Sequence record: PZ296772.1
Source: a phage
Direction: 5' to 3' (one strand)
DNA: 64,000 nt
The notes beneath the pieces are model-generated. The model was given only the letters and a program-made list of their open reading frames with translations. It was not told where the DNA came from and searched no databases. Of the stretch, positions 16,778-30,666 are shown in pieces; the stretch's first letter is position 1, and the number at the start of each line of letters is the position of its first letter. The position numbers and the translations under genes were made by a program.

Positions 16778-17463
<686 letters not shown>

Positions 17464-17476
17464 TTTTCACAAAACA

Positions 17477-17512
17477 GTTTACATAAGGATGATGGTGTGT
17501 TACTATCATCCT
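17477..17512 (+). promoter_or_regulatory. Early promoter cassette (GTTTAC -35, TACTAT -10, GGATGAT/ATCATCC inverted repeat)
   Basis: -35 17477-17482, -10 17501-17506, 18-bp spacer, 7-bp inverted repeat flanking the -10. Confidence 0.6.
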
Positions 17513-17540
17513 ATCAAATAAACAGCCTCAAGGAAATAAA

Positions 17541-17828
17541 ATGAAAACCTATAAAGAATTTATATCACCTGTTGCTAACGTTTCTACTCTGACCGAAGCA
17601 TCCCTTACTTCTGAAGTTATTAAAACAAATAAAGGACGTGAGGGTAAACCAATGATTAGTCTGGTTGACGGCGAAGAAGTAAAAGGTACTGTTTACTTAG
17701 GGGATGGATGGTCTGCTAAGAAAGATGGCGCTACTATTGTTATCTCTCCGGCTGAAGAGACTGCACTGTTTAAAGCTAAGCATATTTCTGTAGCTCAGCT
17801 TAAAATTATTGCAAAAACTCTTCTGTAA
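17541..17828 (+). CDS. Capsid-targeted internal protein candidate (IPI-like)
   Basis: 95-aa ORF starting MKTYKEFISPVANVSTLTE: T4 capsid-targeting-sequence-like leader with [LI]xE protease motifs; in ipI position next to 57B. Confidence 0.7.
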   Translation: MKTYKEFISPVANVSTLTEASLTSEVIKTNKGREGKPMISLVDGEEVKGTVYLGDGWSAKKDGATIVISPAEETALFKAKHISVAQLKIIAKTLL

Positions 17829-17831
17829 GTA

Positions 17832-17870
17832 GTTTACATGTTGATAGGACTATGTTATAGTAGTCCTATC
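17832..17870 (+). promoter_or_regulatory. Early promoter cassette (GTTTAC, TATAGT, GATAGGACTA/TAGTCCTATC inverted repeat)
   Basis: -35 17832-17837, -10 17856-17861, perfect 10-bp inverted repeat 17843-17852 / 17861-17870. Confidence 0.65.
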
Positions 17871-17893
17871 AAAACAACCAAATGGAACCTAAA

Positions 17894-18157
17894 ATGAAAA
17901 CTTTCAACGAATTCATCTCAGAATCGTCTGGTGTGAAAATTAACAAAGCGGTCAATCAGGTTATTGTTGATATTCTTAATTTGTATAACATTGACTTAAC
18001 TCCGCATATCACGCTTGGTAACAAACGAAACTTTTTCATATTTGACACGTCTGAACTTGATGAAAATCAGTTCAATAACATTCAACGTTTTGCGAATGAT
18101 AAAGGTCTTCGACACGAGCCTGGTGGCTATAAAAAATACGCAATATATTTGAAATAA
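17894..18157 (+). CDS. Capsid-targeted internal protein candidate
   Basis: 87-aa product from MKTFNEFISESSG (CTS-like leader, ISE at residues 8-10). Confidence 0.6.
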   Translation: MKTFNEFISESSGVKINKAVNQVIVDILNLYNIDLTPHITLGNKRNFFIFDTSELDENQFNNIQRFANDKGLRHEPGGYKKYAIYLK

Positions 18158-18160
18158 AGG

Positions 18161-18198
18161 TATACAAGCCTATAGGGATATGATATAGTAGTCCTATC
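18161..18198 (+). promoter_or_regulatory. Early promoter cassette (TATACA -35, TATAGT -10, partial inverted repeat)
   Basis: -35 18161-18166, -10 18184-18189, 17-bp spacer; right arm TAGTCCTATC as in other copies. Confidence 0.5.
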
Positions 18199-18226
18199 AA
18201 AACAAATGAGTAAATGGAGAAATAAA

Positions 18227-18412
18227 ATGAAACGCGCTGAACTGATTCGTAATGTTGCTGTAGTAATTGCTTCAATGGCCTTTAGTTTTTCGATGTTTGT
18301 AGGATTCATTTGTGGACTACTGACAACAACAGAAAATTCTATCTCATTGGTAGTAGCATTTCTAATCGGTTTAATCGCTATTGTTATGGATAAAATTGCA
18401 AAAGGTGAGTAA
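18227..18412 (+). CDS. Small membrane protein (2 predicted TM helices)
   Basis: 61-aa product MKRAELIRNVAVVIASMAFSFSMFVGFICGLL...; GGAG RBS; hydrophobic segments. Confidence 0.5.
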   Translation: MKRAELIRNVAVVIASMAFSFSMFVGFICGLLTTTENSISLVVAFLIGLIAIVMDKIAKGE

Positions 18413-18775
18413 ATGAAATATCATGTATATGCAGATTTTGAAGCAAATCCTTCTAAAGACCCTGATTGTCGTTTGATACGCAGACCATTTGATTCAGCAG
18501 CTCAAGCATGGGCTTGGATTAAAACTTGTACTCCTTCTTACACTTTCTTTGAAGTGGTAGACGATAACGGTGTTCTGCATCCAGAACCTACAGAAACTAT
18601 TAATTTCCTTCTGTTTGCTGGATATGACTGTTATCCTCTTGGCGGTATTGACGACCTTGTTGCTACAGGAAAAACTGTTGAGGCTCTTCGCGAAATTTAT
18701 AAAAACGCAGAAGAAAATTTTGACTGGTATCATATTGTTGATGCTCATACCTTTGAAGTGGTGGAACACTCATGA
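18413..18775 (+). CDS. Hypothetical protein
   Basis: 120-aa ORF, translationally coupled to neighbours; no recognised motif. Confidence 0.5.
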   Translation: MKYHVYADFEANPSKDPDCRLIRRPFDSAAQAWAWIKTCTPSYTFFEVVDDNGVLHPEPTETINFLLFAGYDCYPLGGIDDLVATGKTVEALREIYKNAEENFDWYHIVDAHTFEVVEHS

Positions 18776-19062
18776 TTCTTTATGCTAAAGTAAAATCTGT
18801 CGAGAATGGATATGAAAGCGATCAACGTGCAGCTAAAGCACTAGTTAATGACTATGGTATTCTGACTAACTTTGAGGTTGAAAAGGTTTATATCGACCGT
18901 TCATCTTCGCAAGTTAAATTACTCTGTGAAGATGATAAATTTAACACAGTTAACTTTGATTTCTTTATTGAAACAGAAAAAGGCCCTCTTGAATATGATA
19001 TTTTCAAGAATCCTTTGAAATTACGTTGCATTGAATATAATTACATTAATATGGTACGGTGA
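18772..19062 (+). CDS. Hypothetical protein
   Basis: 96-aa ORF with ATGA overlap to upstream ORF. Confidence 0.5.
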   Translation: MILYAKVKSVENGYESDQRAAKALVNDYGILTNFEVEKVYIDRSSSQVKLLCEDDKFNTVNFDFFIETEKGPLEYDIFKNPLKLRCIEYNYINMVR

Positions 19063-19066
19063 GTAA

Positions 19067-19582
19067 ATGAATATTTGTTTAGGCAGTACAATTCCTAAGG
19101 GTTACGTAATTGATGTCACTACTTATGAAAATGATGGTGACAACTATAAAACCAAAACATTGTTTGAAGTGGAAGAGCATGAGCTCCAACAGTTTAAATA
19201 TCTTTTGAAGAAATTTAAGAGTCGTCATTCCAGCACTAAAGCTGAACGTTACTGTGGTAATACACCATTCAGTGATTGCTCGCTTTTAATCTACGAATAC
19301 TTGGTTGAAGGACTGTTCTCAGACCAGCTTTATCCAGAATTCATTAAAAAGGTCTTTGATATTGAAGTCGACCTTGGTAATAAATCTGAAGAAGACGAAT
19401 CGCGTGTATTCGACCTGTTCCGTGAGAATGGATATTTAGTATCAGAAGGTCTCGTTGGTATTCTTGGTCATGCTTCTGAATATTATGATTATGATTTCTT
19501 GCGTGTAGTTGAATGTGTTGAATTTGCTTATATTGAAGAAGAAATCGTTTTGCCAACTGTTAAAATGATTGATTTGCTTTAA
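19067..19582 (+). CDS. Hypothetical acidic protein
   Basis: 171-aa ORF; no recognised motif. Confidence 0.5.
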   Translation: MNICLGSTIPKGYVIDVTTYENDGDNYKTKTLFEVEEHELQQFKYLLKKFKSRHSSTKAERYCGNTPFSDCSLLIYEYLVEGLFSDQLYPEFIKKVFDIEVDLGNKSEEDESRVFDLFRENGYLVSEGLVGILGHASEYYDYDFLRVVECVEFAYIEEEIVLPTVKMIDLL

Positions 19583-19661
19583 GAATTATGTGTTATTATT
19601 AATTCATACCATCTATTACCAAAGGTGCTCTAAAGTGCCTTTCATAATAGAAAGTTATTTA

Positions 19662-19735
19662 GGCCCTGTAGCTCAACGGTTAGCAGCAGTCCCCTCATAA
19701 GGGAAAGGTTACCAGTTCGAATCTGGTCTGGGTCA
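19662..19735 (+). tRNA. tRNA with anticodon CAU (Met or Ile2/lysidine type)
   Basis: Hand-folded cloverleaf: acceptor GGCCCUG/CUGGGUC (1 mismatch), T-arm ACCAG-UUCGAAU-CUGGU, anticodon loop CUCAUAA; CCA not encoded. Confidence 0.65.
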
Positions 19736-19741
19736 TATATT

Positions 19742-19818
<77 letters not shown>

Positions 19819-19836
19819 ACTTTAAGTGAGGAAAAT

Positions 19837-20181
19837 ATGAAAGGCAATGTTTATCTGGTAGTTCATGATTTAACGTTTTATTTTAACGAATATGATACAG
19901 TTATTTCTCATCGATTGATTAATTCGCTGTATCAGCATGCCGATTACATCTATGTTCAAAATGAATTTGGACATTGGAAGTTCATTAAAAACCGTTCTGG
20001 GTTAACTAGTTTTGAATACTTTGACCGTAAAGACCTTTTAAACGAAATCCCGTTGCAACATCGGTTCCAGAAACGTGAATCATTATATTATTGCCGTCAT
20101 ATACCAAACGCCGAATGTGTTAATGAAGCGATTAATCTATGGCGTCGGCGTCGAGAGCAAATTGATGATATGCCAAAATAA
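19837..20181 (+). CDS. Hypothetical protein
   Basis: 114-aa product from MKGNVYLVVHDL (ATG with GAGG RBS just after tRNA-Arg; the ORF-track start overlaps the tRNA). Confidence 0.5.
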   Translation: MKGNVYLVVHDLTFYFNEYDTVISHRLINSLYQHADYIYVQNEFGHWKFIKNRSGLTSFEYFDRKDLLNEIPLQHRFQKRESLYYCRHIPNAECVNEAINLWRRRREQIDDMPK

Positions 20182-20494
20182 GAAGCCGGGTCGCTACCGG
20201 CAAGTCGTCGGACTGATGTTCCCTGAATAAGACCCGACTTTAAGGCGTACATGAGTTGACATCTTAAAGTCCCTTATCTCACAGCAGAAACGGCGCACAG
20301 AATTATCGATTCGAGGAAATATCTTTGCCGTAAGCCGAGTAGCGTTTTTGACGGAACGTTCGGATATGGTCGAGATATGGCCTTTTAAAAATATTGAGTA
20401 GCGTCAACTACTTAATAACCGGGTTCGAATCCCGGCGTTTCGTACAAACACTTGCCTTAGCAGGTGGAACCCCGACAAGGTTGCCGCAAGGCTT
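20182..20494 (+). ncRNA. Candidate structured small RNA / tRNA-like remnant region
   Basis: 313-nt non-coding stretch after the tRNA pair, containing tRNA T-arm-like CCGGG-UUCGAAU-CCCGG (20419-20435) and ending at an intrinsic terminator; no canonical tRNA could be folded. Confidence 0.25.
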
Positions 20495-20522
20495 AGCCCC
20501 TTCCGAAAGGTTGGGGCTTTTT
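20495..20522 (+). terminator. Intrinsic terminator (repeat family copy 1)
   Basis: AGCCCCUUCC-GAAA-GGUUGGGGCU hairpin followed by UUUUU. Confidence 0.7.
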
Positions 20523-20567
20523 GGTATAATAATAAATAGATAAGTTAATTAACTTAGGAAAAGCAAC

Positions 20568-21032
20568 ATGAAATCATACGCTGAATTTTTGACTGAACAA
20601 TCTAGTTCAGATGTAAAAGCCGCTGCGATTGCAGCAATTCAAGCAGGTAAATATTCTTACAAAGACGCCTCCGATGAAGAACGTTTCCGTTTTATTAGAG
20701 ATTTTAAAGCCGAAGGTTTTACTAATGCTAATACTGTTAGCCGAGTTTTTAAAAGCCTAGCTGCATCAGGTGAATTGTTCCAGAAAGCTACAGGTAAAGC
20801 ACCTGCGCCAAAAGCGGACCCTAAAACAGCTCAAGAAAAAAATATCGCCAAAGGAATTATTTCTAAGTATGAAGCAATTCTTAAAGAGCTTTTAGTAATC
20901 AAAACAGAAGGCCAGAAACTGGCACGAGCACATAGTTTCAAAGATAATCCTCACGCTCATAGCCTTGAGTATGTTGAAGATATCCAAAAACTTATTAAAG
21001 ACCGTATCTGGTCTGCTAAACAAATTAAATAA
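20568..21032 (+). CDS. Capsid-targeted internal protein candidate
   Basis: 154-aa ORF starting MKSYAEFLTEQ (CTS-like, LTE at 8-10); Ala/Lys-rich. Confidence 0.6.
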   Translation: MKSYAEFLTEQSSSDVKAAAIAAIQAGKYSYKDASDEERFRFIRDFKAEGFTNANTVSRVFKSLAASGELFQKATGKAPAPKADPKTAQEKNIAKGIISKYEAILKELLVIKTEGQKLARAHSFKDNPHAHSLEYVEDIQKLIKDRIWSAKQIK

Positions 21033-21038
21033 TAGAAT

Positions 21039-21065
21039 GCCCCTTCCTTACGGTTGGGGCTTTTT
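21039..21065 (+). terminator. Intrinsic terminator (repeat family copy 2)
   Basis: GCCCCUUCC-UUAC-GGUUGGGGC hairpin followed by UUUUU. Confidence 0.7.
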
Positions 21066-21098
21066 GGTATCTAGGGCATAAAAATATTTCATAAAGAT

Positions 21099-21140
21099 GT
21101 TTACTTCTTCTAAGGACATGATACTATAGACTTATCAACC
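21099..21140 (+). promoter_or_regulatory. Early promoter cassette (GTTTAC -35, TACTAT -10)
   Basis: -35 21099-21104, -10 21122-21127, 17-bp spacer, followed by CTTATCAAC leader. Confidence 0.5.
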
Positions 21141-21155
21141 GCAGAGGAAAATGTT

Positions 21156-21461
21156 ATGAGTCTTTATACTGAACTGAATAAAAAATCTGAAGAATCTGCT
21201 GAAACTATTTTTAAAAACGTGCAAAAGCGTATTCTAGAAAAGATGTATAACACTGCAGCTAAAGGTGAAAAATCTTGCCGGTTCCCGATGAGGTGTTCTT
21301 CTGATTTATGCGCAAATACTATTGAATGGCTGGAAAGTGAAGGTCTTACGGTAGAGAAAAACCCGGCGACTTCTATTGATAGCGAATCATATATTAGTAT
21401 TTCTTGGGATAAACCTCGTACGAATGAAGGACACTACAAGTTGTTAAGTTGGAAAAATTAA
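21156..21461 (+). CDS. Hypothetical protein
   Basis: 101-aa ORF; no recognised motif. Confidence 0.5.
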   Translation: MSLYTELNKKSEESAETIFKNVQKRILEKMYNTAAKGEKSCRFPMRCSSDLCANTIEWLESEGLTVEKNPATSIDSESYISISWDKPRTNEGHYKLLSWKN

Positions 21462-21470
21462 AAATAACGA

Positions 21471-21510
21471 TGTACAAGCACCAAGGATGGTGATACTATA
21501 GACTTATCAA
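21471..21510 (+). promoter_or_regulatory. Early promoter cassette (TGTACA -35, CACCA/TGGTG inverted repeat, TACTAT -10)
   Basis: -35 21471-21476, inverted repeat 21479-21492, -10 21494-21499. Confidence 0.5.
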
Positions 21511-21529
21511 CTACAGAGGAGTAAACAAA

Positions 21530-21694
21530 ATGACTACTTTAATTATTTGGTTCGATGAAAATGAAGAAACATACTGTGTGAATATCGGTGAAAGTCCAAT
21601 GCCTGAATTTGAATCCTCAGATAAAAACTCTGTTGTATCTTGGGCTGAAGGTTATAAAGCCGCTAAAGGTGACGTTGAAATAATTTACATCTAA
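21530..21694 (+). CDS. Small hypothetical protein (54 aa, below ORF-track cutoff)
   Basis: ATG 8 nt after GAGGAG RBS; MTTLIIWFDENEETYCVNIG...; shares leader and first codons (ATGACTACTTT) with ORF at 26139. Confidence 0.5.
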   Translation: MTTLIIWFDENEETYCVNIGESPMPEFESSDKNSVVSWAEGYKAAKGDVEIIYI

Positions 21695-21720
21695 GTAAGT
21701 TTATGTTATAGTAATCACAT
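21684..21720 (+). promoter_or_regulatory. Early promoter-like element (TTTACA -35, TATAGT -10)
   Basis: -35 21684-21689, -10 21707-21712, 17-bp spacer, upstream of ORF 21741. Confidence 0.45.
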
Positions 21721-21740
21721 CAAATCAAGAGGAAAACAAA

Positions 21741-21968
21741 ATGGCTAAAGTTAGTATTGATGTCGTTGATTATGAATATACCGAAGAAGTTATTCGCAAC
21801 CGTCACCCTGAAGTTCGTATCGATTCAGCCCAAGATTCCAAGTTCTGGACAACTGAGCTTAATCTGAGTGGTCCTTATGAAGCTGTTAAGAAGTTCATGG
21901 TTGAAGAATACTGCGAAGGCATGCACCCGGAAGACGCCAAGTTTTATGTCAATTTGATTAAAAAATAA
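21741..21968 (+). CDS. Hypothetical protein
   Basis: 75-aa ORF. Confidence 0.5.
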   Translation: MAKVSIDVVDYEYTEEVIRNRHPEVRIDSAQDSKFWTTELNLSGPYEAVKKFMVEEYCEGMHPEDAKFYVNLIKK

Positions 21969-22005
21969 TTTACAAACTCTTGAGAGCAGAGTATAATGCT
22001 CTCAT
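21969..22005 (+). promoter_or_regulatory. Early promoter cassette (TTTACA, TATAAT, TGAGAGCA/TGCTCTCA inverted repeat)
   Basis: -35 21969-21974, -10 21992-21997, 8-bp inverted repeat flanking the -10; near-duplicate of cassette at 53512. Confidence 0.55.
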
Positions 22006-22038
22006 TGGATAATAAACCACCAATTGAAAGGTAATAAT

Positions 22039-22632
22039 ATGAACACACTGAAGAAACTTGTTGAATTCATCCGCACTAAACTGGGTACTGCTATGGCTAA
22101 AAATCTGACTGTCGAAGAACAGTATAATGCAGCTGCAGATAAGTTGATTACCCAAATCAGAGAACTAAAAACGGCTTCTGTTAAATCTATTAATGAAGAA
22201 AAACGTATTCGCGAACTTGTTATTGAAAAGAATAAGCAAGCCGCTTCTAAGGAACGTGAAATTCGTAAGCTCCTGGCTGAAGGACAAGATGTTACCATGC
22301 ATGCTAAGCTTGGTCTTCTGTATCGTCGAACTGCCGAACAACTTAATACAAAAGCTGACGGGTATGCCGCTATGCGAATTGAAATTGCTCGTAAGGTGGT
22401 TGAACTTGACGATGCTCGTCAGAATCTGGCAATCAAACTCGAATACATTCGTGAAACTCGAGCAGCCAATGCCCTTGGTATCTCTACGGCTGATGATGTA
22501 ATTGAAATCGCTGCACTGACTAAGGTTGATATCGAAGACACTCTGACTCGTGTTGAAACGTTCAATGGCACTCCAGCTGGTGTCGAAACCACTTCTGCCG
22601 ATGTACAAGAATATATTAACTCTTTGAAATAA
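22039..22632 (+). CDS. Coiled-coil protein
   Basis: 197-aa product from [16 protein letters not shown]; long heptad-rich helices; any PspA-like resemblance is compositional only. Confidence 0.5.
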
Positions 22633-22640
22633 AATAATAC

Positions 22641-22662
22641 GGAGGACTCAGGTCCTCCTTTT
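22641..22662 (+). terminator. Intrinsic terminator
   Basis: GGAGGAC-UCAG-GUCCUCC hairpin followed by UUUU. Confidence 0.65.
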
Positions 22663-22681
22663 GGATAATAAAGGAGTTAAC

Positions 22682-23278
22682 ATGCGAAACCAAAATAATG
22701 ATATTGACTCAATGTTCGAAGAGTTCCGAAATAAGGTAAATCCACCTACGTCTTTAGTTGATTCATTACGATATGTTGCAACTGGACGTAAATGGTACTG
22801 GTCGTCTTCTTATGAGACAACTGAATATGCAAATAACCGAAAATCTTTATTAGCCCCAGGTATTATGATTCATGATATCGGAGCTATTGCTAAACTAGTT
22901 GCAGACCATGATATTAGATTCACTGATTTCATTGCTCCTACATGGTCTGTTTGTTGTTTAAACACTGAACGGGACTATATCAGCGAACGCTCTGAAGATT
23001 ATTATGGTTTTAGAGATAAGCTCTTAAGGTCTAACATGTTTTATATCGATACTGAAGTTCTAGTCGATAATAAAAAATATTACTTTACGTTAATCGTCGA
23101 TTCTGAAACTATGTATGAAGGCAAGCCTTTGCTTAAAAGAGTTGATGCTTTAAGTGCTATTGATGCGCTTTATGAAACCATGGTTGTTAGTCCTAATTTC
23201 ACTAACAATTTAATCCTTGAGCAATTTATTATGGAATGTAGAGAATATGTCAAAGCCAACCCTATACATGCCAAGTAA
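22682..23278 (+). CDS. Hypothetical protein ending in FIMECR tail motif
   Basis: 198-aa product from MRNQNNDID (AAGGAG RBS); C-terminus ...EQFIMECREYVKANPIHAK. Confidence 0.55.
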   Translation: MRNQNNDIDSMFEEFRNKVNPPTSLVDSLRYVATGRKWYWSSSYETTEYANNRKSLLAPGIMIHDIGAIAKLVADHDIRFTDFIAPTWSVCCLNTERDYISERSEDYYGFRDKLLRSNMFYIDTEVLVDNKKYYFTLIVDSETMYEGKPLLKRVDALSAIDALYETMVVSPNFTNNLILEQFIMECREYVKANPIHAK

Positions 23279-23642
23279 GCCCTGGGCGTATGAATACAAG
23301 CGTAAATTAATCCCAAATGAAGTACTATTTGGCCCTATTTTAGCTTTAGCATTTTTAATCTTTATGATTATAGGAGCTGTTTTAGATTCTAGTGAAGTTA
23401 TATCGTCTGATGCAGCATTTTCATTAATGTTCGTCGCACCACTTATTGTACCATTTTTATTAATGCCTATTAACTGGGTAGGATATTGGCACCAAGGCCG
23501 TCATCACAGAGCTCGAGTTCGTGAGTGGAAAGTTCAGTGCGCAAAAGCCCAAGCTCAGTATGATGAAGCTGTTAAAAAGTATGAATATGAAGAAGCTATG
23601 GAATTCGTTAAGGAAATAAGATGCAAAAGCCTCAACTCTTAA
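23247..23642 (+). CDS. Membrane protein (2 TM) with basic/helical C-terminal tail
   Basis: Start chosen at MSKPTLYMPSK (alternatives 23217 or 23268); hydrophobic helices; tail ...EFVKEIRCKSLNS. Confidence 0.45.
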   Translation: MSKPTLYMPSKPWAYEYKRKLIPNEVLFGPILALAFLIFMIIGAVLDSSEVISSDAAFSLMFVAPLIVPFLLMPINWVGYWHQGRHHRARVREWKVQCAKAQAQYDEAVKKYEYEEAMEFVKEIRCKSLNS

Positions 23643-23980
23643 CCGTATGGCCTTCTCTTGGTGAGAATATTTTAATTTTTATCACGAGCGCCGGCATGGG
23701 ATTTGCCTTTGGATTAGTTGGATTTCTTATTGACGGCGTTGTGTTAGGATTTATAGGGAACACTGGTGGGTTCACAGACCAATGGCAGGACTTACGGTAT
23801 ACCCAAGCCTTTGCATCCATCGCATCCTTTTGTACTGTAGTCTATTTTTACTACGATTTTATAAACCATAACAAGAAAAATAAAAAGGTTTACGCTTCTC
23901 AAATGATTAGTTATAATGAACTCCTAGCTAGACGTGAAAATGAAACAATCGAAAACTTTATTAAGGAATGTAGAAAATGA
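23621..23980 (+). CDS. Membrane protein with C-terminal ENFIKECRK tail
   Basis: 119-aa ORF; 2-3 hydrophobic helices then Lys-rich linker and ENFIKECRK terminus. Confidence 0.55.
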   Translation: MQKPQLLTVWPSLGENILIFITSAGMGFAFGLVGFLIDGVVLGFIGNTGGFTDQWQDLRYTQAFASIASFCTVVYFYYDFINHNKKNKKVYASQMISYNELLARRENETIENFIKECRK

Positions 23981-24282
23981 GTAAGATTATTGAAATTAAA
24001 GTACCAGAGTTTAATGATGCCAAATCCGCTTCAGATGCAATTTATAAACTTCTGAATCAAGCTGAACGTATCGAAGAAGAAGCAACAAAGATCGCAGACC
24101 AATATTCTGTATCATTTTCTGTAGGTGATTATGGTAGCGGTCGTACTTATTATCCTAAGGGTGAAATCGTATCCCAGTGGATGAAAAATGAAATTGAAAA
24201 TAATGGCGGCGATGTTAAGCGTGAAGGTAATGGTTACGTTATTACTGAAGGTGCTTGGGTTTCGTCTTCTGCGTTGTGCTAA
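23977..24282 (+). CDS. Tandem paralog 1 of GWVSSSxxC family
   Basis: 101-aa ORF ending GAWVSSSALC; followed by two paralogs with near-identical spacers (TGCTAAGGAA..ATG). Confidence 0.55.
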   Translation: MSKIIEIKVPEFNDAKSASDAIYKLLNQAERIEEEATKIADQYSVSFSVGDYGSGRTYYPKGEIVSQWMKNEIENNGGDVKREGNGYVITEGAWVSSSALC

Positions 24283-24291
24283 GGAATCATT

Positions 24292-24564
24292 ATGTCTAAA
24301 GAACAAACCGAACTGGCTGAAGCCGTAGCAAAAATATATGCAGCTATTGAGGCTGCCAAAGAAATTGCTGATAAACAAAACACAACATTCGACTTGTATC
24401 CAGCTTATGGTATGGGTGGAACCTATCATTCACCAGGACATCTTAAAGCCGATCTTGAACGTTGTACAAAAAACGGTTATGCTGAATGGGCTGATGTTTA
24501 TCAATACGACTACAACCTGAGCCTTGAAGATGGTGGTTGGGTTGCATCTTCACACACTTGCTAA
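24292..24564 (+). CDS. Tandem paralog 2 of GWVSSSxxC family
   Basis: 90-aa ORF ending GGWVASSHTC. Confidence 0.55.
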   Translation: MSKEQTELAEAVAKIYAAIEAAKEIADKQNTTFDLYPAYGMGGTYHSPGHLKADLERCTKNGYAEWADVYQYDYNLSLEDGGWVASSHTC

Positions 24565-24573
24565 GGAAACCAT

Positions 24574-24771
24574 ATGTCTCGTGAATTAGATTGTGCTGTA
24601 CGTACCGCGGTAGCTGCTCTAGAAAACCTGTTCCAAATTGCAACAGAAGAACGCGAAGAAGTTACATTATGGATTGAAGATAACGCAGGTCTGAATCTCC
24701 AGGACGCGATCTCATTATCTAATAATAGCATTACTGTTCAAGGCTGGGTATCGTCTAGTTATTCTTGCTAA
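24574..24771 (+). CDS. Tandem paralog 3 of GWVSSSxxC family
   Basis: 65-aa ORF ending QGWVSSSYSC. Confidence 0.55.
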   Translation: MSRELDCAVRTAVAALENLFQIATEEREEVTLWIEDNAGLNLQDAISLSNNSITVQGWVSSSYSC

Positions 24772-24775
24772 AACA

Positions 24776-24814
24776 GTTTACAATAAGATAGGACTATGTT
24801 ATAGTAGTCCTATC
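24776..24814 (+). promoter_or_regulatory. Early promoter cassette (GTTTAC, TATAGT, GATAGGACTA/TAGTCCTATC inverted repeat)
   Basis: -35 24776-24781, -10 24800-24805, perfect 10-bp inverted repeat 24787-24796 / 24805-24814. Confidence 0.65.
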
Positions 24815-24833
24815 AAATTAAATGGAGTCCGCA

Positions 24834-25073
24834 ATGATTTATTACGAAAGTATCGGAACCAAAGTGGTTGGTAAAACCATTACTCGTGAAAAGTTTGCAA
24901 AGATATTCGATATGCGTTATAAAAAATCTGAACACAAAGGCATCCGATTCGAAGATGCGCACTGTGCAATTTGCCCTTATAATGAAGACGTAAATGGTAC
25001 AATCGTTCCATTGGTAGAGGCTTCACATGATGACCTCTGGGATGAATATAATATCGCATGTCGTGAAATTTAA
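24834..25073 (+). CDS. Hypothetical protein
   Basis: 79-aa product from MIYYESIGTK (GGAG RBS); ends ...YNIACREI. Confidence 0.5.
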   Translation: MIYYESIGTKVVGKTITREKFAKIFDMRYKKSEHKGIRFEDAHCAICPYNEDVNGTIVPLVEASHDDLWDEYNIACREI

Positions 25074-25101
25074 GTTAATGAATTAATCCGAGGAAAATAT
25101 T

Positions 25102-26058
25102 ATGATGTTAGTTATTGGTTCTCGTGCACTTCACTATCATGGTCTTATTGATTCTAGCGCTATCAAAAATAGTGATTGGGACTTTATTGCAGACCAAGGT
25201 TCTTGGAATGCATTCAAAAATCAAATGATGGGTGTATATGTTCATCAAGATAACCCTGATGTCCAAGTTTTCAAATGCTTCCATAATGGACGCGAAACTC
25301 ATTTTGAAGCATATATTGTTCCGGCAATCACTAATGTCCGTGAATTAGTCGGTGAACTCACTCCTGAAGATTTCACGTCTTCTTATGACCTTTTAAAATA
25401 CGCCAAGAAAAATTTGACTAAAGACCGTTTGACCGGGTTTTACTGGGCAACTCCTGAGATATGTCTTGCAATTAAAATGTCTCATCGTTTCAAGAAAAAT
25501 AATCCATTCTTTTTAAAGACTATGAACCATATTCAGTATCTTCGCGGTAAAGGTGTTACACTGAACGATGAACTTACTGAAATTATGCTGAAACGCCAGA
25601 AAGAAACTTTGAACTATGCTCACCCGGTTCTTGACACTTCTAAAAGTGCGTTCTTTAAAGATGACATCTATACATATGACCATGATACTATTCATGAAGC
25701 CATTGCACTAACTGACCAGCCTGCTTATAAGTTTTATATGAAAGAAGGCTCAGAAGTTATGACATCACGCGAGAAGTTCGAATCATTACCAGAAATGGTT
25801 AAATTAGCCGGTGTATATGAAGAAGCTTGTGTATTAGCTCTTGAACGTTCACAGATTCCTAACGACTTTAAAATCCATCCGAGTGATAGTTTTATGATGG
25901 CCCTTGAAAAGGTCTGTACATCAATCACATCAGGATGGTTCCGTGAGTTCGCTTGGGAAAATTATAGCAAAGTAGTAAGTATGTACCAAAGCTTAGGACA
26001 TGACGATTACGTCAAGCGTTTCAAACAAAACTTTCATATGGTAAAACCTTTCAAATAA
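25102..26058 (+). CDS. Hypothetical protein, possible nucleotidyltransferase-like N-terminus (weak)
   Basis: 318-aa ORF; N-terminal VIGSRA...(17 aa)...SDWDFI loosely resembles hG[GS]...DxD of Pol-beta-type NTases but spacing is long. Confidence 0.5.
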   Translation: MMLVIGSRALHYHGLIDSSAIKNSDWDFIADQGSWNAFKNQMMGVYVHQDNPDVQVFKCFHNGRETHFEAYIVPAITNVRELVGELTPEDFTSSYDLLKYAKKNLTKDRLTGFYWATPEICLAIKMSHRFKKNNPFFLKTMNHIQYLRGKGVTLNDELTEIMLKRQKETLNYAHPVLDTSKSAFFKDDIYTYDHDTIHEAIALTDQPAYKFYMKEGSEVMTSREKFESLPEMVKLAGVYEEACVLALERSQIPNDFKIHPSDSFMMALEKVCTSITSGWFREFAWENYSKVVSMYQSLGHDDYVKRFKQNFHMVKPFK

Positions 26059-26070
26059 TTTCACAAAACA

Positions 26071-26106
26071 GTTTACAAGGTCTGTAGTTGTTGATACTAT
26101 AGACCT
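26071..26106 (+). promoter_or_regulatory. Early promoter cassette (GTTTAC, TACTAT, AGGTCTGTAG/CTATAGACCT inverted repeat)
   Basis: -35 26071-26076, -10 26095-26100, inverted repeat with one mismatch. Confidence 0.6.
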
Positions 26107-26138
26107 ATCAAAACAAATGAGTGAATGGAGATATAAAA

Positions 26139-26339
26139 ATGACTACTTTGAATAAACGTTTCGGTAAAGCTAAACCTGGTTGTGCAGCAGAACGTCGTTA
26201 TGTTTTCGCTCAGTTAGAAGATGTAGAGTATCAGATTAATCAAGTTCACATTACTGGTATCGAGCCTATGTGTGGCCTTGAAGCTCTTCGTGAAGTTCGT
26301 GATGGGTATCGTCGTGACATCGAAGAAATGTCAAAATAA
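26139..26339 (+). CDS. Hypothetical protein
   Basis: 66-aa product from MTTLNKRFGKAKPG (GGAG RBS). Confidence 0.5.
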   Translation: MTTLNKRFGKAKPGCAAERRYVFAQLEDVEYQINQVHITGIEPMCGLEALREVRDGYRRDIEEMSK

Positions 26340-26340
26340 G

Positions 26341-26378
26341 TGTACAAACTGATAGGGCTATGTTATAGTAGTCCTATC
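26341..26378 (+). promoter_or_regulatory. Early promoter cassette (TGTACA, TATAGT, GATAGGGCTA/TAGTCCTATC inverted repeat)
   Basis: -35 26341-26346, -10 26364-26369, imperfect 10-bp inverted repeat. Confidence 0.55.
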
Positions 26379-26395
26379 AACTTGAGGAGAATATT

Positions 26396-26701
26396 ATGAA
26401 ATTAACAGAAACCAACCGAATCGGTCTTTTTACAATATTTGCATCGCTTTTTTACGCAGCTCTTTCTGTTGCAGTATTACAAAAGGCTTACGATATGGAT
26501 GGTGTTCCTGGTTGTATATTTTTATCACCGTTTTTATTATTCGTCGGAGCTTTGATATTATATGCCACGTCCGGTTTAGACCATAATGTCTGGGTCAATT
26601 ATAAACGTAAATTGTCCGAAGAAGAACACGCAGAAGCTCGTAAAAAAGCTATTGAATCTACCAATCTAGAAAATTTCATTAAAGAATGTCGAGGAAAATA
26701 A
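26396..26701 (+). CDS. Membrane protein (2 TM) with C-terminal ENFIKECRGK tail
   Basis: 101-aa ORF; two hydrophobic helices, charged helical linker, ENFIKECRGK terminus. Confidence 0.6.
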   Translation: MKLTETNRIGLFTIFASLFYAALSVAVLQKAYDMDGVPGCIFLSPFLLFVGALILYATSGLDHNVWVNYKRKLSEEEHAEARKKAIESTNLENFIKECRGK

Positions 26702-26702
26702 T

Positions 26703-27389
26703 ATGAATAGTTCTAAAGTGTTTAATAGTCAAGCTCGTGCAGTAGGTGGTTTTGCCGGCGGTATTTCTAATGATAAAATCAAGAACGAGCCTATGTTCTT
26801 CAACTGTAGTTTAGAATTTGCTTATAATAACGGCGGTCCTATTACTCGCTCTTTCATTATGAACTTGCCGGATGATTGGAACACCGACCAGGTTGTATTT
26901 GATTCACGAGTCCACATGCTGATGCCTGGTTGGTATCCTGCAATCCCAGGCTATCACCATGATGACGTACCACGCCCAGATATTCCAGTTGGTCAACACT
27001 TTATTACTGCAGGACAACCTGACTATGACAACCCTCGTTACCATTCTGAACATATTCTTGGTCTTGTTAACGCTGATGTGTGTCCTACTCATTTTGCAAC
27101 AGGAACTGCGGAGTTCAGTCAGATTCCTGATGGCGAACTTATCTATCGCCAGTGGCACAAAGAAGTCCTCGAAAAAATTGAAAAAGGTGAACTAGAGAAA
27201 TGGGAAGCTCCGGACCGTACTCTTCTTCAGTTTGATTGGCAAACATGGCACACTGGTTCTCGTGCAATTAGTAATGGATGGCGTTGGTTCGGACGTGTAT
27301 CTCGTAATACAGACAGAGTTAAAAAGATTACCAATGAAATTCGTGTCAATGCCCAAGTTTATCTGGAATTCCCTATGGAAGGCTGGTAA
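26703..27389 (+). CDS. Hypothetical protein (His-rich, possible metal-binding)
   Basis: 228-aa ORF with YHHDD and HSEH clusters; function not assignable from sequence. Confidence 0.5.
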   Translation: MNSSKVFNSQARAVGGFAGGISNDKIKNEPMFFNCSLEFAYNNGGPITRSFIMNLPDDWNTDQVVFDSRVHMLMPGWYPAIPGYHHDDVPRPDIPVGQHFITAGQPDYDNPRYHSEHILGLVNADVCPTHFATGTAEFSQIPDGELIYRQWHKEVLEKIEKGELEKWEAPDRTLLQFDWQTWHTGSRAISNGWRWFGRVSRNTDRVKKITNEIRVNAQVYLEFPMEGW

Positions 27390-27880
27390 TGATACATAAA
27401 ATTCACTGGGCAAACATGGACGATGGCGATGAAGGTATTTCATATTATTCTATAGATTGGACAGGATGTCCATCCTACTTAGTGAAACATATTTGTCAAG
27501 AATTTAAAATCGACCAGCCAGCAGGTATTATCGTGAACAGATACATTAATGGATATCAACCTATCGATGAAGTAATACGAACAACTCAAGCTGAGCTTGA
27601 AAAGTTTTTCAATAAGTGCCAATGGATAACAGGATGGATTATATTTGTACCGTCTATATGGTTTTTCAGTACTAAGGTGAGTTCTTTCGGTTTTGTTGAT
27701 ACTATTGCTATCTTATTAGCATCTAGTATCATAAGTGTTGTTGGTGGCATCATTGGCGGCGGTACCGCCGCCATCATTATTAATCTTGTTAAAAGTAGTT
27801 TACAAGAACATAAAGACAAGATAAAAGCCAAGAATAATGAAGTTGAACGTTTTATTACCGAATGCAGGAATTTGAGATGA
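27389..27880 (+). CDS. Membrane protein with C-terminal ERFITECRNLR tail
   Basis: 163-aa ORF; soluble N-domain, two hydrophobic helices (res. about 85-135), Lys-rich linker and FITECR terminus. Confidence 0.6.
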   Translation: MIHKIHWANMDDGDEGISYYSIDWTGCPSYLVKHICQEFKIDQPAGIIVNRYINGYQPIDEVIRTTQAELEKFFNKCQWITGWIIFVPSIWFFSTKVSSFGFVDTIAILLASSIISVVGGIIGGGTAAIIINLVKSSLQEHKDKIKAKNNEVERFITECRNLR

Positions 27881-28113
27881 GTATAGCAATTTACATTAAA
27901 TCAGAATCATGTGATTCTTATCTGTATTCCTATGATACCGGAACGTCAGAAGAGAAAATCAAAGAAGATTTAGAAAGCGACTTGGATATGTTCCGACCTA
28001 TTTCTGATTATATGGTCCAAATATCTGATAGTGAAAGTCCGTCAACAGAAACATGTGTTGAAATTATTATACGAGATATCTTTAAACAATCACGGGACCG
28101 AGATGATGAGTAA
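27877..28113 (+). CDS. Hypothetical acidic protein
   Basis: 78-aa product from MSIAIYIKSES. Confidence 0.45.
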   Translation: MSIAIYIKSESCDSYLYSYDTGTSEEKIKEDLESDLDMFRPISDYMVQISDSESPSTETCVEIIIRDIFKQSRDRDDE

Positions 28114-28561
28114 GAAAAATAAAGTGAAAGAACTATCAGCCGGTATTATTTTCCTTACCGAAGATAAAGAATTATTCATGGGGCGTGTAACTGGTTCTCG
28201 TCCTAAAGGTTCTTTAGCTCATCGGTGGGATATTCCTAAAGGTCGTGTCGAGCCCGGTGAATCTCCTATCGAAGCCGCTATTCGTGAATGCGAAGAAGAA
28301 ACTGGGTTTACACAATATGACCCTGCCTTCCTGAAAGACCTAGGTGAACATCATTACTCAGACAATAAGAATATTCATCTGTTCCTATATACCATCCCTG
28401 TAGAGCACGAGCAATTCAGAAACAGTGTTTGTAATTCCTATCATACATTCCCAGATGGACGACAGATTCCTGAATTTGATGCATTCGCTTTAATTAAACC
28501 TTCTCAATGGGAATATGTAATGGGCAAATCATTATATAAGGTGCTCACTACCCTCTTATAA
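28103..28561 (+). CDS. nudE: Nudix hydrolase NudE
   Basis: Nudix box GRVEPGESPIEAAIRECEEETG; 152 aa; immediately upstream of lysozyme e as in T4. Confidence 0.9.
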   Translation: MMSKKNKVKELSAGIIFLTEDKELFMGRVTGSRPKGSLAHRWDIPKGRVEPGESPIEAAIRECEEETGFTQYDPAFLKDLGEHHYSDNKNIHLFLYTIPVEHEQFRNSVCNSYHTFPDGRQIPEFDAFALIKPSQWEYVMGKSLYKVLTTLL

Positions 28562-28569
28562 GTAATAAA

Positions 28570-28593
28570 TACCTCCTATAAACGTGGGAGGTA
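28570..28593 (+). promoter_or_regulatory. Stem-loop sequestering the Shine-Dalgarno of gene e
   Basis: TACCTCC-tataaacgtg-GGAGGTA: 3' arm contains GGAGG 5 nt before the e start codon; loop contains late-promoter-like TATAAACG. Confidence 0.6.
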
Positions 28594-28595
28594 TT

Positions 28596-29084
28596 ATGAA
28601 TATATTTGAAATGCTTCGTAATGACGAAGGTCTTAGACTGACTTTATACAAAGACACTGAAGGCTTTTGGACTATTGGCATAGGCCATTTAGTAACAAAG
28701 AACCCGTCTTTAGCCGTAGCTAAAGCTGAACTTGACAGAATGATCGGTCGTAAATGCAACGGTACAATTACACTTGATGAGGCTGAAAAGCTATTTAATG
28801 AAGACGTTGATAAAGCCGTTCGCGGAGTCTTGGGTAATGCTAAACTTAAACCGGTATATGATTCTTTAGATGCGGTTCGTCGATGTGCATTGGTCAATAT
28901 GGTCTTCCAAATGGGTGTAGCAGGCGTCGCCGGTTTTACTAATTCTCTTCGTATGCTTCAACAGAAACGTTGGGACGAGGCGGCAGTAAATCTAGCCCAA
29001 TCTAAATGGTATCGTCAGACACCTAATCGCGCGAAACGCGTAATCTCAACATTTAAAACAGGAACTTGGAAAGCGTATATATGA
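28596..29084 (+). CDS. e: Endolysin (T4 lysozyme e)
   Basis: 162-aa product [32 protein letters not shown]... about 80% identical to T4 lysozyme from memory; catalytic Glu/Asp/Thr context conserved. Confidence 0.97.
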
Positions 29085-29362
29085 AAACATATAGTGAATT
29101 TTTATCAGAATCTATTCTTAGCGAAGCTACTGACACATTTGCAACTAAGCTAGGTGCAGCTTTGGTTGAAGCTGAAAGTCTATTAGCACGTATTTCTGAA
29201 CTTGCTAGTAAGATAGATACTCGCAAATTTGAGCGCACCAGTGATATCGTTAAGCTTGAAGCATTGTTGCGCATGTGTGATAAACCAGAAGAAATCGCTA
29301 AGAACGGTTCGCTGATGAAACAACGTCTTGAAAAATATATTTCAGGCGCTTCAGAAAAATAG
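29081..29362 (+). CDS. Capsid-targeted internal protein candidate (IPIII/IPII position)
   Basis: 93-aa product from [15 protein letters not shown] (CTS-like, LSE at 8-10 and 13-15). Confidence 0.65.
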
Positions 29363-29363
29363 T

Positions 29364-29416
29364 GTTTACTTCCTCCAAGGTCTTTGATACTATACATTCA
29401 TCAACTACTTGGAGGA
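29364..29416 (+). promoter_or_regulatory. Early promoter cassette upstream of denV (GTTTAC, TACTAT, 9-bp inverted repeat containing the denV RBS)
   Basis: -35 29364-29369, -10 29388-29393, TCCTCCAAG (29371-29379) / CTTGGAGGA (29408-29416). Confidence 0.6.
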
Positions 29417-29420
29417 AATT

Positions 29421-29834
29421 ATGACTCGTATCAATTTAACACTTGTTTCTGAACTGGCCGACCAACATCTTATGGCTGAGTATCGTGAATTACCACGCGT
29501 ATTTGGTGCAGTCCGTAAACATGTCCAAAATGGTAAACGTGTAAAGGATTTTAAAATCTCTCCAACATTTATCTTAGGCACAGGTCACGTAACATTCTTT
29601 TACGACAAACTCGAATTTTTACGTTTACGTCAAATCGAGCTAATCGCTGAATGTTTGAAACGCGGTTTCAAAATAAAGGACACGACGGTCCAGGATATTT
29701 CCGACATACCTGCCGAATTTCGTAATAATTATGTCCCGTCCGAAGCGTCCATTGCGATAAGTCAAGCACGCTTAGATGAAAAAATTGCTCAACGTCCGAC
29801 TTGGTACAAATACTATGGTAAATCAATTTACTAA
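29421..29834 (+). CDS. denV: Endonuclease V (pyrimidine dimer DNA glycosylase)
   Basis: 137-aa product [34 protein letters not shown]..., very close to T4 endo V from memory. Confidence 0.95.
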
Positions 29835-29840
29835 GGAAAA

Positions 29841-30101
29841 ATGAAAATGTATCAAGAATTTATCTTTGAAGCAGATGCCAAAGGTCCTAAATTTAAAGTT
29901 AAAGCTTTCATTGGTGATGCGGAAGACTTTGGCTCGTTAAAACGTAATGGATATTCTTTCTTAGGTGGCGATGGTAAAGAAATCAACACCTATGCAAAAC
30001 GTAGTGAAATTGCTTATGTTGTAGCAAGCCCTAAAGTAGACGTTGGCGATATTGGATATGATTTTAACAACTTCGGAATTATTTCTGGCGGTAAAGCTTA
30101 A
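29841..30101 (+). CDS. Capsid-targeted internal protein candidate
   Basis: 86-aa ORF starting MKMYQEFIFEADAKG (CTS-like, IFE at 8-10). Confidence 0.65.
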   Translation: MKMYQEFIFEADAKGPKFKVKAFIGDAEDFGSLKRNGYSFLGGDGKEINTYAKRSEIAYVVASPKVDVGDIGYDFNNFGIISGGKA

Positions 30102-30104
30102 ACG

Positions 30105-30145
30105 GTTTACGCTTAAGTATTAATATGGTATAATTGCTCTATCAA
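30105..30145 (+). promoter_or_regulatory. Early promoter cassette (GTTTAC -35, TATAAT -10)
   Basis: -35 30105-30110, -10 30129-30134, 18-bp spacer, CTATCAAAAC leader. Confidence 0.5.
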
Positions 30146-30164
30146 AACAAACAAGGAAACAAAA

Positions 30165-30494
30165 ATGAAAACGTATAAAGAATTTATCACTGAAGTTACA
30201 TTATCTGCGGAACAGAAAGCTGCTATCGAAGAAGGTAAAAATCCCAAAGTAACATATAAAGTAAATAGTAAAGGCGTTTTTGATGGTTTGGTTCAAGACC
30301 CTGAATTGAAAAAAGCTCTTTCTAAAACTAATGCGTACTTTGCTCCTAAATTTAACACAGCCGGTGTACTTATTGGATTGGATGTATTCAACTCTAAAGG
30401 TGTTCTATCTAATGCCTTTGGTTATGCCGCTAACAAAATTACCAAAGCTGCATGGGAATCCAATACCAAACAAGCTCAAAAGCCTAGAGTATAA
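30165..30494 (+). CDS. Capsid-targeted internal protein candidate
   Basis: 109-aa ORF starting MKTYKEFITEVTLSAEQ (CTS-like, ITE at 8-10). Confidence 0.65.
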   Translation: MKTYKEFITEVTLSAEQKAAIEEGKNPKVTYKVNSKGVFDGLVQDPELKKALSKTNAYFAPKFNTAGVLIGLDVFNSKGVLSNAFGYAANKITKAAWESNTKQAQKPRV

Positions 30495-30666
30495 TTCTTG
30501 CCTAATAAAGGGAAACGCAACCTCTCCTCATGAACGTCGAGTCCTCTGAGTGATGTACCTTTTCCAACCTGTAATAAGGCCGAGCGCAATGCGGTAATGG
30601 GTTTACATAGCGAGTCGAAGGACCTAACATGTGCCACGGAACGGCCCCAACCTTAAGAGAAACTAA

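Follow-up and report, generated by a model that had tools for sequence, protein, structure and literature searches.

A 64,000-nucleotide stretch of phage DNA (sequence record PZ296772.1; hereafter the window) carries, between positions 17,541 and 30,494, six open reading frames (ORFs) whose products begin with the same short leader. We consider it very probable that these ORFs, numbered ORF1 to ORF6 in the order of their starts (Table 1), are internal protein (ip) genes of a Mosigvirus, and that their products are packaged into the phage head, cleaved there and injected, likely to act against host restriction. Judged by its sequence, the phage itself is an RB69-like T-even coliphage of this genus. 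A megablast search with positions 17,000 to 31,000 matched 996 phage records; the top match was Escherichia phage vB_EcoM-172859UKE1 (MZ234025; 96.7% identity, 97% of the query), the next-best matches included APCEc01, ATK47 and SF, and the relatives carrying annotation were all Mosigvirus, that is, members of the RB69 group of T-even phages.

A shared leader and its predicted fate

The original prediction had singled out six ORFs that begin MK[TSM][YF]xEF[IL]. Scanning all six frames of the 64 kb with this motif, and with a second, looser motif that also catches T4 IPI, we recovered the same six ORFs, all on the + strand, and no others; 200 mononucleotide shuffles of the window gave no match. 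Every one of the six starts has a GGAA-type Shine-Dalgarno sequence 5-13 nt upstream. Two of them, at 17894 and 29081, sit within longer mechanical ORFs that open at 17882 and 29066, and they are likely the true starts because of the Shine-Dalgarno sequence in front of each and their agreement with homologues. All six leaders follow M-K-x-[YF]-x-E-F-[ILV], with an aromatic residue at position 4 and Phe at position 7, and any two of them have 5-8 of 10 residues in common. The predicted mature parts, by comparison, are as unrelated as had been supposed (all pairwise BLASTP E > 1).

In T4, residues 4 and 7 of the capsid targeting sequence are needed for targeting and residues 8 and 10 for processing, and propeptides span 10-19 residues (Mullaney and Black 1996, as summarized in PMC9026906). 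The leaders match these experimentally defined residues, which upholds their assignment to the T4 pattern. A [LI]-x-E tripeptide closes a predicted propeptide of 10-19 residues in each product: ISE, LTE, LSE, IFE and ITE stand at residues 8-10 of ORF2 to ORF6, where the original prediction had placed them. That prediction had also put LTE at residues 8-10 of ORF1; these residues are in fact ISP, and LTE is found at 17-19, homologous to the ITE of T4 IPI that ends at residue 19 before Ala. The range of 86-154 amino acids (aa), given earlier for the mature parts, is that of the precursors, and the mature proteins are predicted to measure 76-144 aa.

The T4 leader binds the scaffolding core, gp21 cleaves after Glu, and the mature proteins stay with the DNA and are injected (PMC9026906, PMC5694885, PMC3012670). 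By the same route, the N-terminal ~10 residues of each precursor (19 in Ip1, the product of ORF1) would tie it to the gp22 scaffolding core during head assembly, and a gp21-type prohead serine protease would cut after the Glu of [LI]-x-E (Glu10 in five, Glu19 in Ip1). The mature proteins, mostly basic, would then remain in the head with the DNA and be ejected into the cell at infection. The nearest relative, MZ234025, encodes both a gp21-type prohead protease (Peptidase_S77, 2.9e-107) and a gp22 scaffold (T4_CASP, 1.5e-89).

Once in the cell, the ejected proteins would most likely be stoichiometric inhibitors of first-line nucleases. In T4, the GmrSD enzymes of strains CT596, ECOR21 and ECOR17 are blocked by Ip1, Ip2 and Ip3, respectively, and no inhibitor protects against the target of another (Silas et al. 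2025, PMC12373910); the same authors suggest that ip-locus genes all target GmrSD variants. Additionally, leaderless IPIII is active in the cytoplasm (PMC9391042), and RB69 IPI reportedly protects against GmrSD-type enzymes (PMC6024577). Should the proteins of the window resemble T4 Ip1, Ip2 and Ip3 in this respect, each would block its own variant among the GmrSD-type type IV restriction enzymes that attack sugar-modified hydroxymethylcytosine (hmC) DNA; the earlier suggestion that such proteins inhibit host defence is in line with these findings.

A shared 5' end might instead be a nucleic-acid element, either a translation-initiation or regulatory region or a gene-conversion 'handle' for recombination, with the encoded peptide incidental. 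The leaders do terminate repeated cassettes of promoter and 5' untranslated region (5'UTR); similarity at the DNA level extends for 40-70 nt across ribosome-binding site and leader (repeat families D3 and D6); the leader is A/T-rich, with AAA as second codon; and ip content varies among near-identical phages, so recombination at these ends clearly happens. Yet the codons change while the residues are kept. Thr3 is encoded by ACC, ACT, ACA and ACG, and the codons of Tyr/Phe4, Phe7 and Ile/Leu8 vary too (TAT and TAC; TTT and TTC; ATA, ATC, TTG and TTA), and this synonymous variation therefore indicates a constraint on protein, not DNA. When IMG/VR was searched with a DNA pattern for MKTYxEFIxE, at least 120 stretches matched, as against 2 and 1 for two controls of the same composition with scrambled codon order. 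Distant homologues of ORF3 hold the aromatic residue at 4, E6, F7 and [LIV]xE amid other residues, and the T4 leader has been shown experimentally to direct foreign proteins (PMC9026906, PMC3012670). We thus regard a purely nucleic-acid explanation as highly improbable, while the DNA can still serve cassette exchange alongside the role of the leader as a targeting peptide.

Leader genes at three loci

Genes on the + strand of the window follow the order of T4 and RB69 in reverse: 3, 1, 57A, 57B, ipI, ..., tRNA.4/.3/.2, tRNAs, ..., e.6-e.2, nudE (NUDIX by Pfam), e, denV, vs.8. Five of the six leader ORFs lie in the classical variable ip loci (57B to tRNA.4; e/denV), as the original prediction had it for all of them; ORF3 follows the tRNA genes, at a third position not distinguished earlier. 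An Rfam scan of 17-31 kb returned the two tRNAs alone, and an rnaC-like stretch 5' of ORF3 is without an Rfam family. Gene 57B, immediately upstream of ipI, encodes the 2H phosphoesterase Acb1, which acts against the cyclic-oligonucleotide-based anti-phage signalling system (CBASS), and the ipI locus therefore belongs to a wider anti-defence island.

Table 1. Leader ORFs, landmark genes and repeated elements (all positions are those of the window; a slash marks the predicted cut)
Feature	Coordinates	Strand	Description	Evidence
57B	17008..17463	+	Acb1 (anti-CBASS 2H phosphoesterase); immediately 5' of ipI	Pfam Acb1 1e-58; T4 and RB69 synteny
Cassette of ipI	17472..17527	+	Early promoter and stem-loop (GTTTACA ... 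TACTAT within hairpin)	Repeat family D2; promoter scan
ORF1	17541..17828	+	ipI (Ip1); 95-aa precursor	Pfam IPI_T4 2.6e-49; annotated Ip1 in ATK47, RB69, ChristianSchoenbein
Cassette of Ip9 gene	17827..17882	+	Early promoter and stem-loop (TTTACA-17-TATAGT, upstream TG)	Families D1, D2; promoter scan
ORF2	17894..18157	+	Ip9 family; 87 aa; MKTFNEFISE/S; predicted mature part ~77 aa	phrog_7673 'internal head protein' 2.6e-48, residues 1-87
tRNA-Met(CAT) and tRNA-Arg(TCT)	19662..19818	+	Landmark of third locus	ARAGORN; Rfam tRNA
Direct repeat, left copy	20496..20527	+	32 nt; terminator-like hairpin GCCCCTTCC..GGTTGGGGCTTTTT, then GGTAT	Repeat family D8
ORF3	20568..21032	+	Unnamed leader gene; 154 aa; MKSYAEFLTE/Q; predicted mature part ~144 aa	phrog_2280 'unknown function'
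Direct repeat, right copy	21039..21070	+	32 nt	Repeat family D8
e	28584..29084	+	Endolysin	Pfam Phage_lysozyme; annotated in relatives
ORF4	29081..29362	+	Ip5-like; 93 aa	phrog_3499 'internal head protein' 3.5e-46; equals RB69p127 'internal head protein'
denV	29409..29834	+	Endonuclease V	Pfam Pyr_excise; annotated in relatives
ORF5	29841..30101	+	RB69p125 family; 86 aa; MKMYQEFIFE/A	phrog_2667 'internal head protein' 6e-20; RB69p125 annotated 'internal head protein'
Promoter of ORF6	30106..30134	+	Early type (TTTACG-17-TATAAT, upstream TG)	Promoter scan
ORF6	30165..30494	+	Unnamed leader gene, RB69ORF123c family; 109 aa; MKTYKEFITE/V	phrog_3966 'unknown function'

Comparison with relatives indicates that the ip genes are exchanged as cassettes at three hyperplastic loci, 57B-tRNA.4, tRNA-e.8 and e-denV-vs.8. 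The window holds Ip1, Ip9, ORF3, an Ip5-like gene, ORF5 and ORF6. MZ234025 has five leader ORFs, being without Ip9 and ORF5 and having an additional 104-aa type, and its 168,667 bp contain no leader ORF outside these three loci. Leader scans gave five in ATK47 (Ip7 replaces Ip9), seven in ChristianSchoenbein, seven in RB69 (two with damaged leaders) and three in T4, which supports the earlier count of six genes against three in homologous loci. Pfam recognised Ip1 alone, and none of the six is covered by an NCBIfam model.

By its sequence, ORF1 is a clear orthologue of T4 IPI. Its leader reads MKTYKEFISPVANVSTLTE/A, and the predicted cut after Glu19 would leave a mature part of 76 aa. The precursor is 86% identical to T4 IPI, and 6 of the 76 mature residues differ from T4 IPI*. 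Residues 20-95 score 165.5 bits against Pfam PF11634 (cut-off 25), and the same residues align with the 76-residue IPI* structure (PDB 2JUB; E 7.4e-41). We predict by analogy that the mature product is an IPI*-type inhibitor of the type IV restriction enzyme GmrSD.

ORF2 is Ip9 on sequence grounds, with full-length homology to, and 70-72% identity with, Ip9 of RB15, RB32 and VR5. The AlphaFold2 (AF2) model of its product (predicted local distance difference test score, pLDDT, 84) suggests an alpha-beta-beta-alpha-beta-beta body behind disordered residues 1-12. 2JUB was not among the PDB fold matches of this model, so there is no support for a fold common to Ip9 and IPI*; a search of BFVD with the model gave one unnamed 535-aa match. 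The Ip9 body (residues 16-87; window 17939-18154) is 58% identical to a leaderless 72-aa protein of the Kagunavirus JSSK01 (L005:3007-3222), a 44-kb siphovirus in which the leaderless gene is the first of an operon opposite helicase and helix-turn-helix genes. Similar leaderless matches occur in phages EC3-1 and KS_A3. Because the Ip9 body is found without a leader in Kagunavirus, we suggest that in this case a small gene was there first and acquired the leader later. Furthermore, the 'ip7 protein' of Escherichia phage OLB35 (P0029) is a chimera whose N-terminal part is Ip7-like and whose last ~33 residues are identical to Ip9 of the window, which indicates recombination between neighbouring ip cassettes.

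At the e/denV locus, ORF4 begins within the end of e, its ATG sharing nucleotides with the stop codon of that gene (ATGA). The product of ORF4 is 47.6% identical to Ip5 of T2 and RB32 over 90% of its length and for this reason is best named Ip5-like. The candidate cleavage site is the LSE at residues 8-10, followed by S, and a second candidate is LSE14/A. ORF5 starts 7 nt past denV. ORF6 was matched in 91 phage records, and among the matches listed all those annotated are hypothetical; a homologue beside denV in Dhakavirus AnYang is 36% identical overall, with 9 of 10 leader residues the same (MKTYQEFITE).

ORF3 was matched in 512 phage records and, among the matches listed, all those annotated are 'hypothetical protein'. 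Its AF2 model (pLDDT 75) suggests a pair of helical domains with a disordered Pro/Lys linker between them, the leader being disordered as well. Homologues in Tequatrovirus start MKSYAQFLNEVVLNE/A or MKTYNEFLNESVLTE/A, and one in a Klebsiella T4-like phage, also situated after tRNA genes, starts MKFKEFLAE. When 1.84 billion representatives were searched exhaustively with a profile of the family, no more than ten proteins were found. Distant homologues begin MLKFNEFLAE/G, MLEYSEFLKE and MISFNEFVDGNLITE/S, retaining the aromatic residue at 4, E6, F7, [LIV]8 and [LI]xE amid changed residues, and these are the positions defined by mutagenesis in T4. Sequence comparison indicates that the leader is the most conserved part of both the ORF3 and the ORF6 family. 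At the same locus, ChristianSchoenbein has a second, unrelated leader ORF of 187 aa, which has 9 of 10 leader residues in common with ORF3 and nothing else; RB69 ORF149c (L003:12051-12491) is a truncated, frameshifted form of this 187-aa protein. Two copies of a 32-nt direct repeat, 91% identical to each other, flank ORF3 in the window. The accounts cited here speak of two ip loci (PMC12373910); ORF3 can be regarded, from its sequence context, as marking a third polymorphic one (tRNA/rnaC region to e.8), because the leader is kept in distant homologues, an unrelated leader ORF stands at the same locus and the gene is bracketed by repeats.

This variability bears on whether the products might be packaged mainly as structural or charge-neutralising proteins of the head core, rather than as specific anti-defence effectors. 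Four of the six predicted mature parts are basic (pI, the isoelectric point, 9.0-9.7), about 1000 internal protein molecules lie within packaged T4 DNA (PMC3012670), and neither Ip9 nor ORF3 has a fold or family match pointing to an inhibitor. On the other hand, ip genes are non-essential and highly variable among near-identical phages, which argues for arms-race rather than structural genes, and all three T4 internal proteins have specific GmrSD targets (PMC12373910). Nor are ORF4 (predicted pI 6.3) and ORF5 (8.2) strongly basic; a siphovirus, unable to use it as a T4-type head component, encodes the Ip9 body on its own as the opening gene of an early operon; and the locus also carries Acb1, a known anti-defence gene. 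We find a mainly structural role improbable, and a role as injected effectors likely.

The layout of expression differs among the six genes: three have an early promoter and stem-loop to themselves, two are carried along by e and denV, and the last is the one flanked by the direct repeat. ORF1, ORF2 and ORF6 are preceded by a GTTTAC -35 element, a -10 element inside a hairpin and then a common 'ctatcaaaa' 5'UTR, an architecture also found at T4 ipI, ipII and ipIII. At least eight cassettes of this kind (~56-65 nt; GTTTACA, -10 in hairpin, 'CTATCAA') are spread over 17.4-26.4 kb, at 17472-17527, 17827-17882, 18144-18208, 21454-21518, 21678-21733, 24771-24826, 26055-26119 and 26335-26390. They precede many small genes of the hyperplastic region, are not ip-specific, and resemble the early promoter/stem-loop (PeSL) cassettes of T4-type phages as described in PMC2839356 and PMC4122927.

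Two further groups of small genes in this region have common C-termini. Three tandem ORFs (23977-24282, 24292-24564 and 24574-24771; 101, 90 and 65 aa) end in G-W-V-x-S-S-x-x-C (GAWVSSSALC, GGWVASSHTC and QGWVSSSYSC) and look like a local paralogue family. Five proteins (22661-23278, 23217-23642, 23621-23980, 26396-26701 and 27389-27880), at the e.5, e.4, e.3, RB69ORF133c and e.2 positions, carry F-I-x-E-C-R at or near the C-terminus (variants FIMECRE, FVKEIRC, FIKECRK, FIKECRGK and FITECRNLR); several are predicted membrane proteins, and the motif also appears as DNA repeat D11.

The leader in other viruses and the weight of the evidence

About half of the IMG/VR matches listed are on enterobacterial T-even genomes, and the others are on environmental contigs with a GC content of 0.24-0.43. 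Each match listed stands at the start of an ORF no shorter than 52 aa; those ORFs that are complete, 132 in number, fall into at least 48 clusters of unrelated bodies; examples (from L013-L132) are L027:10272-10697 on the minus strand, L117:3497-4851, L013:3988-4524 and L074:754-1311. The bodies of environmental leader ORFs include a 2H/Acb1-like phosphoesterase and a cytidylyltransferase-like protein. Other such ORFs are stand-alone versions of modules of Syn9 gp114 (L137:4479-5810) and S-TIM4 ORF_115 (L133:3281-4378), a multi-domain, Lys-rich cyanomyovirus protein encoded a few genes 3' of gp16. The cyanophage hits to two environmental leader families do not demonstrate use of the leader by cultured cyanomyoviruses, as they match internal modules of these two proteins and not an N-terminal leader. 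A tblastn search with the environmental family 'LNKFEKFLLKQG' gave no match in cultured phages, and a literature search linking 'capsid targeting' with cyanophages found nothing beyond one review.

A broader proposal would join three elements: that T-even phages have a third ip locus, that the ORF3, 187-aa and ORF6 families are unrecognised injected proteins, and that the leader is a widespread, portable 'inject me' tag. We put this combination forward tentatively, and as a whole it seems to us rather doubtful. If environmental leader proteins were indeed head-targeted, a sequence search would list hundreds of candidate injected effectors.

Several observations weigh against the conclusion that all six ORFs encode packaged, cleaved and injected proteins. 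The protease and scaffold genes were checked solely in MZ234025, both lying outside the window, and a literature search for virion proteomics or N-terminal data on this phage or close relatives found none. RB69 has copies with impaired leaders, namely ORF123c (L003:1950-2279), with Ala for Glu10 (E10A), and p127 (L003:3423-3704), whose product starts MKTYMNFYQNLSLNE with the scrambled leader MKTYMNFYQN, so not every copy need function. In the environmental set, one leader ORF adjoins a T7-type portal gene (PF12236, 1.7e-121), and because of this the leader alone may not prove gp21-dependent packaging. In ORF4, [LIV]xE is also present at residues 13-15, 28-30 and 38-40, and the protein might therefore be cut into smaller pieces. 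Fold searches with the AF2 models of ORF2 and ORF3 gave no functional clue and no PDB match at E < 0.001. A canonical late promoter (TATAAATA) was not found 5' of any of the six ORFs, an absence that is uninformative because the T4 ip genes also lack one. Finally, the predicted cut is followed by Gln in ORF3 and by Val in ORF6, compared with Ala at the T4 IPI, IPII and IPIII sites, which makes the processing of these two less certain.

Some of these points also favour a more restricted account, in which only part of the set is functional and ORF3, ORF6 or both carry a leader-like N-terminus by descent or recombination, their products being unpackaged, unprocessed cytoplasmic early proteins. 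Besides the unusual residues after the cut and the Ala at position 10 in the RB69 copy of ORF6, both genes are 'hypothetical' in the annotated records among the matches listed and belong to PHROGs of unknown function; ORF3 lies outside the two classical loci; and some viruses with the leader may have no gp21-type protease. Among distant homologues, nevertheless, no part of either family is better conserved than the leader; a residue other than Glu at position 10 stops processing, not targeting (PMC9026906); and the third locus, with its unrelated leader ORF in ChristianSchoenbein and RB69 (9 of 10 leader residues in common with ORF3), is polymorphic in the manner of the classical loci. A partly functional set thus seems unlikely to us, though less so than the two alternatives above, and we favour packaging of all six products.

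Relation to known internal proteins and significance

The T4 genes are the closest experimental point of reference. Internal proteins of T4 carry the same leader, MKTYQEFIAE/A in IPII and IPIII and MKTFKEFTSTTTPVSTITE/A in IPI, together with the [LI]xE cleavage motif, an early promoter with hairpin, and small, mostly basic mature proteins. The genomic neighbourhoods agree as well (57B-ipI; e-ip-denV), T4 ipII and ipIII lying between e and denV. The window differs in having six genes rather than three, in lacking IPII and IPIII themselves, in carrying a gene by the tRNA genes where T4 has none, and in the order e-ip-denV-ip-ip as opposed to e-ipIII-ipII-denV.

The original prediction had implied that so large a set was new. 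However, an expanded, variable set was described for T-even relatives in 1994, with at least ten internal proteins in T-even phages (Repoila et al. 1994 EMBO J 13:4181, as cited in PMC12373910 and PMC3012670), and part of the set is annotated in RB69. In the accounts we cite, the polymorphic T-even ip genes (Ip4-Ip12 and others) have unrelated bodies, a common leader, cassette exchange and differences between close relatives, as here; ORF2 corresponds to Ip9 and ORF4 is related to Ip5, names used in the 1994 study as well as in the annotations of RB32, T2 and RB15. Ip5 of T2 and RB32 is encoded next to 57B, whereas the Ip5-like gene of the window is next to e.

RB69 (NC_004928), of the same genus, has the same three loci, and ORF1, ORF4, ORF5 and ORF6 are homologues in the 97-100% class of its ipI, p127, p125 and ORF123c. 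It differs in having Ip7 (RB69p156) in place of Ip9, an extra 90-aa leader ORF (ORF124c) and, at the third locus, the frameshifted ORF149c cassette instead of the 154-aa ORF3; four of its seven leader ORFs are labelled internal proteins in its annotation. Given the literature since Repoila et al. and the annotation of four of the six genes in RefSeq relatives, the finding itself is already known. What we add is small: the third locus and two unannotated families, ORF3 and ORF6.

The GmrSD inhibitors Ip1, Ip2 and Ip3 (Bair and Black 2007; Silas et al. 2025) offer the likely mode of action here, by analogy, as injected proteins that each block one nuclease variant, and in the window too several non-homologous genes for putative inhibitors stand together in hotspots. 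ORF1 alone, though, is homologous to a characterised inhibitor. RB69-type DNA, moreover, contains arabinosyl-hmC, not glucosyl-hmC (PMC6024577), and for this reason the relevant nucleases may differ from those met by T4.

The concept of injected internal proteins is established, and the value of the present analysis is incremental. Annotation pipelines overlook two of the six genes, and the leader picks them out unambiguously. Injected internal proteins are the earliest of phage countermeasures, present as the DNA enters the cell. Because none of the five proteins other than Ip1 has a known target, they are ready candidates for new inhibitors, and they may also help to explain host range in therapeutic Mosigvirus phages.

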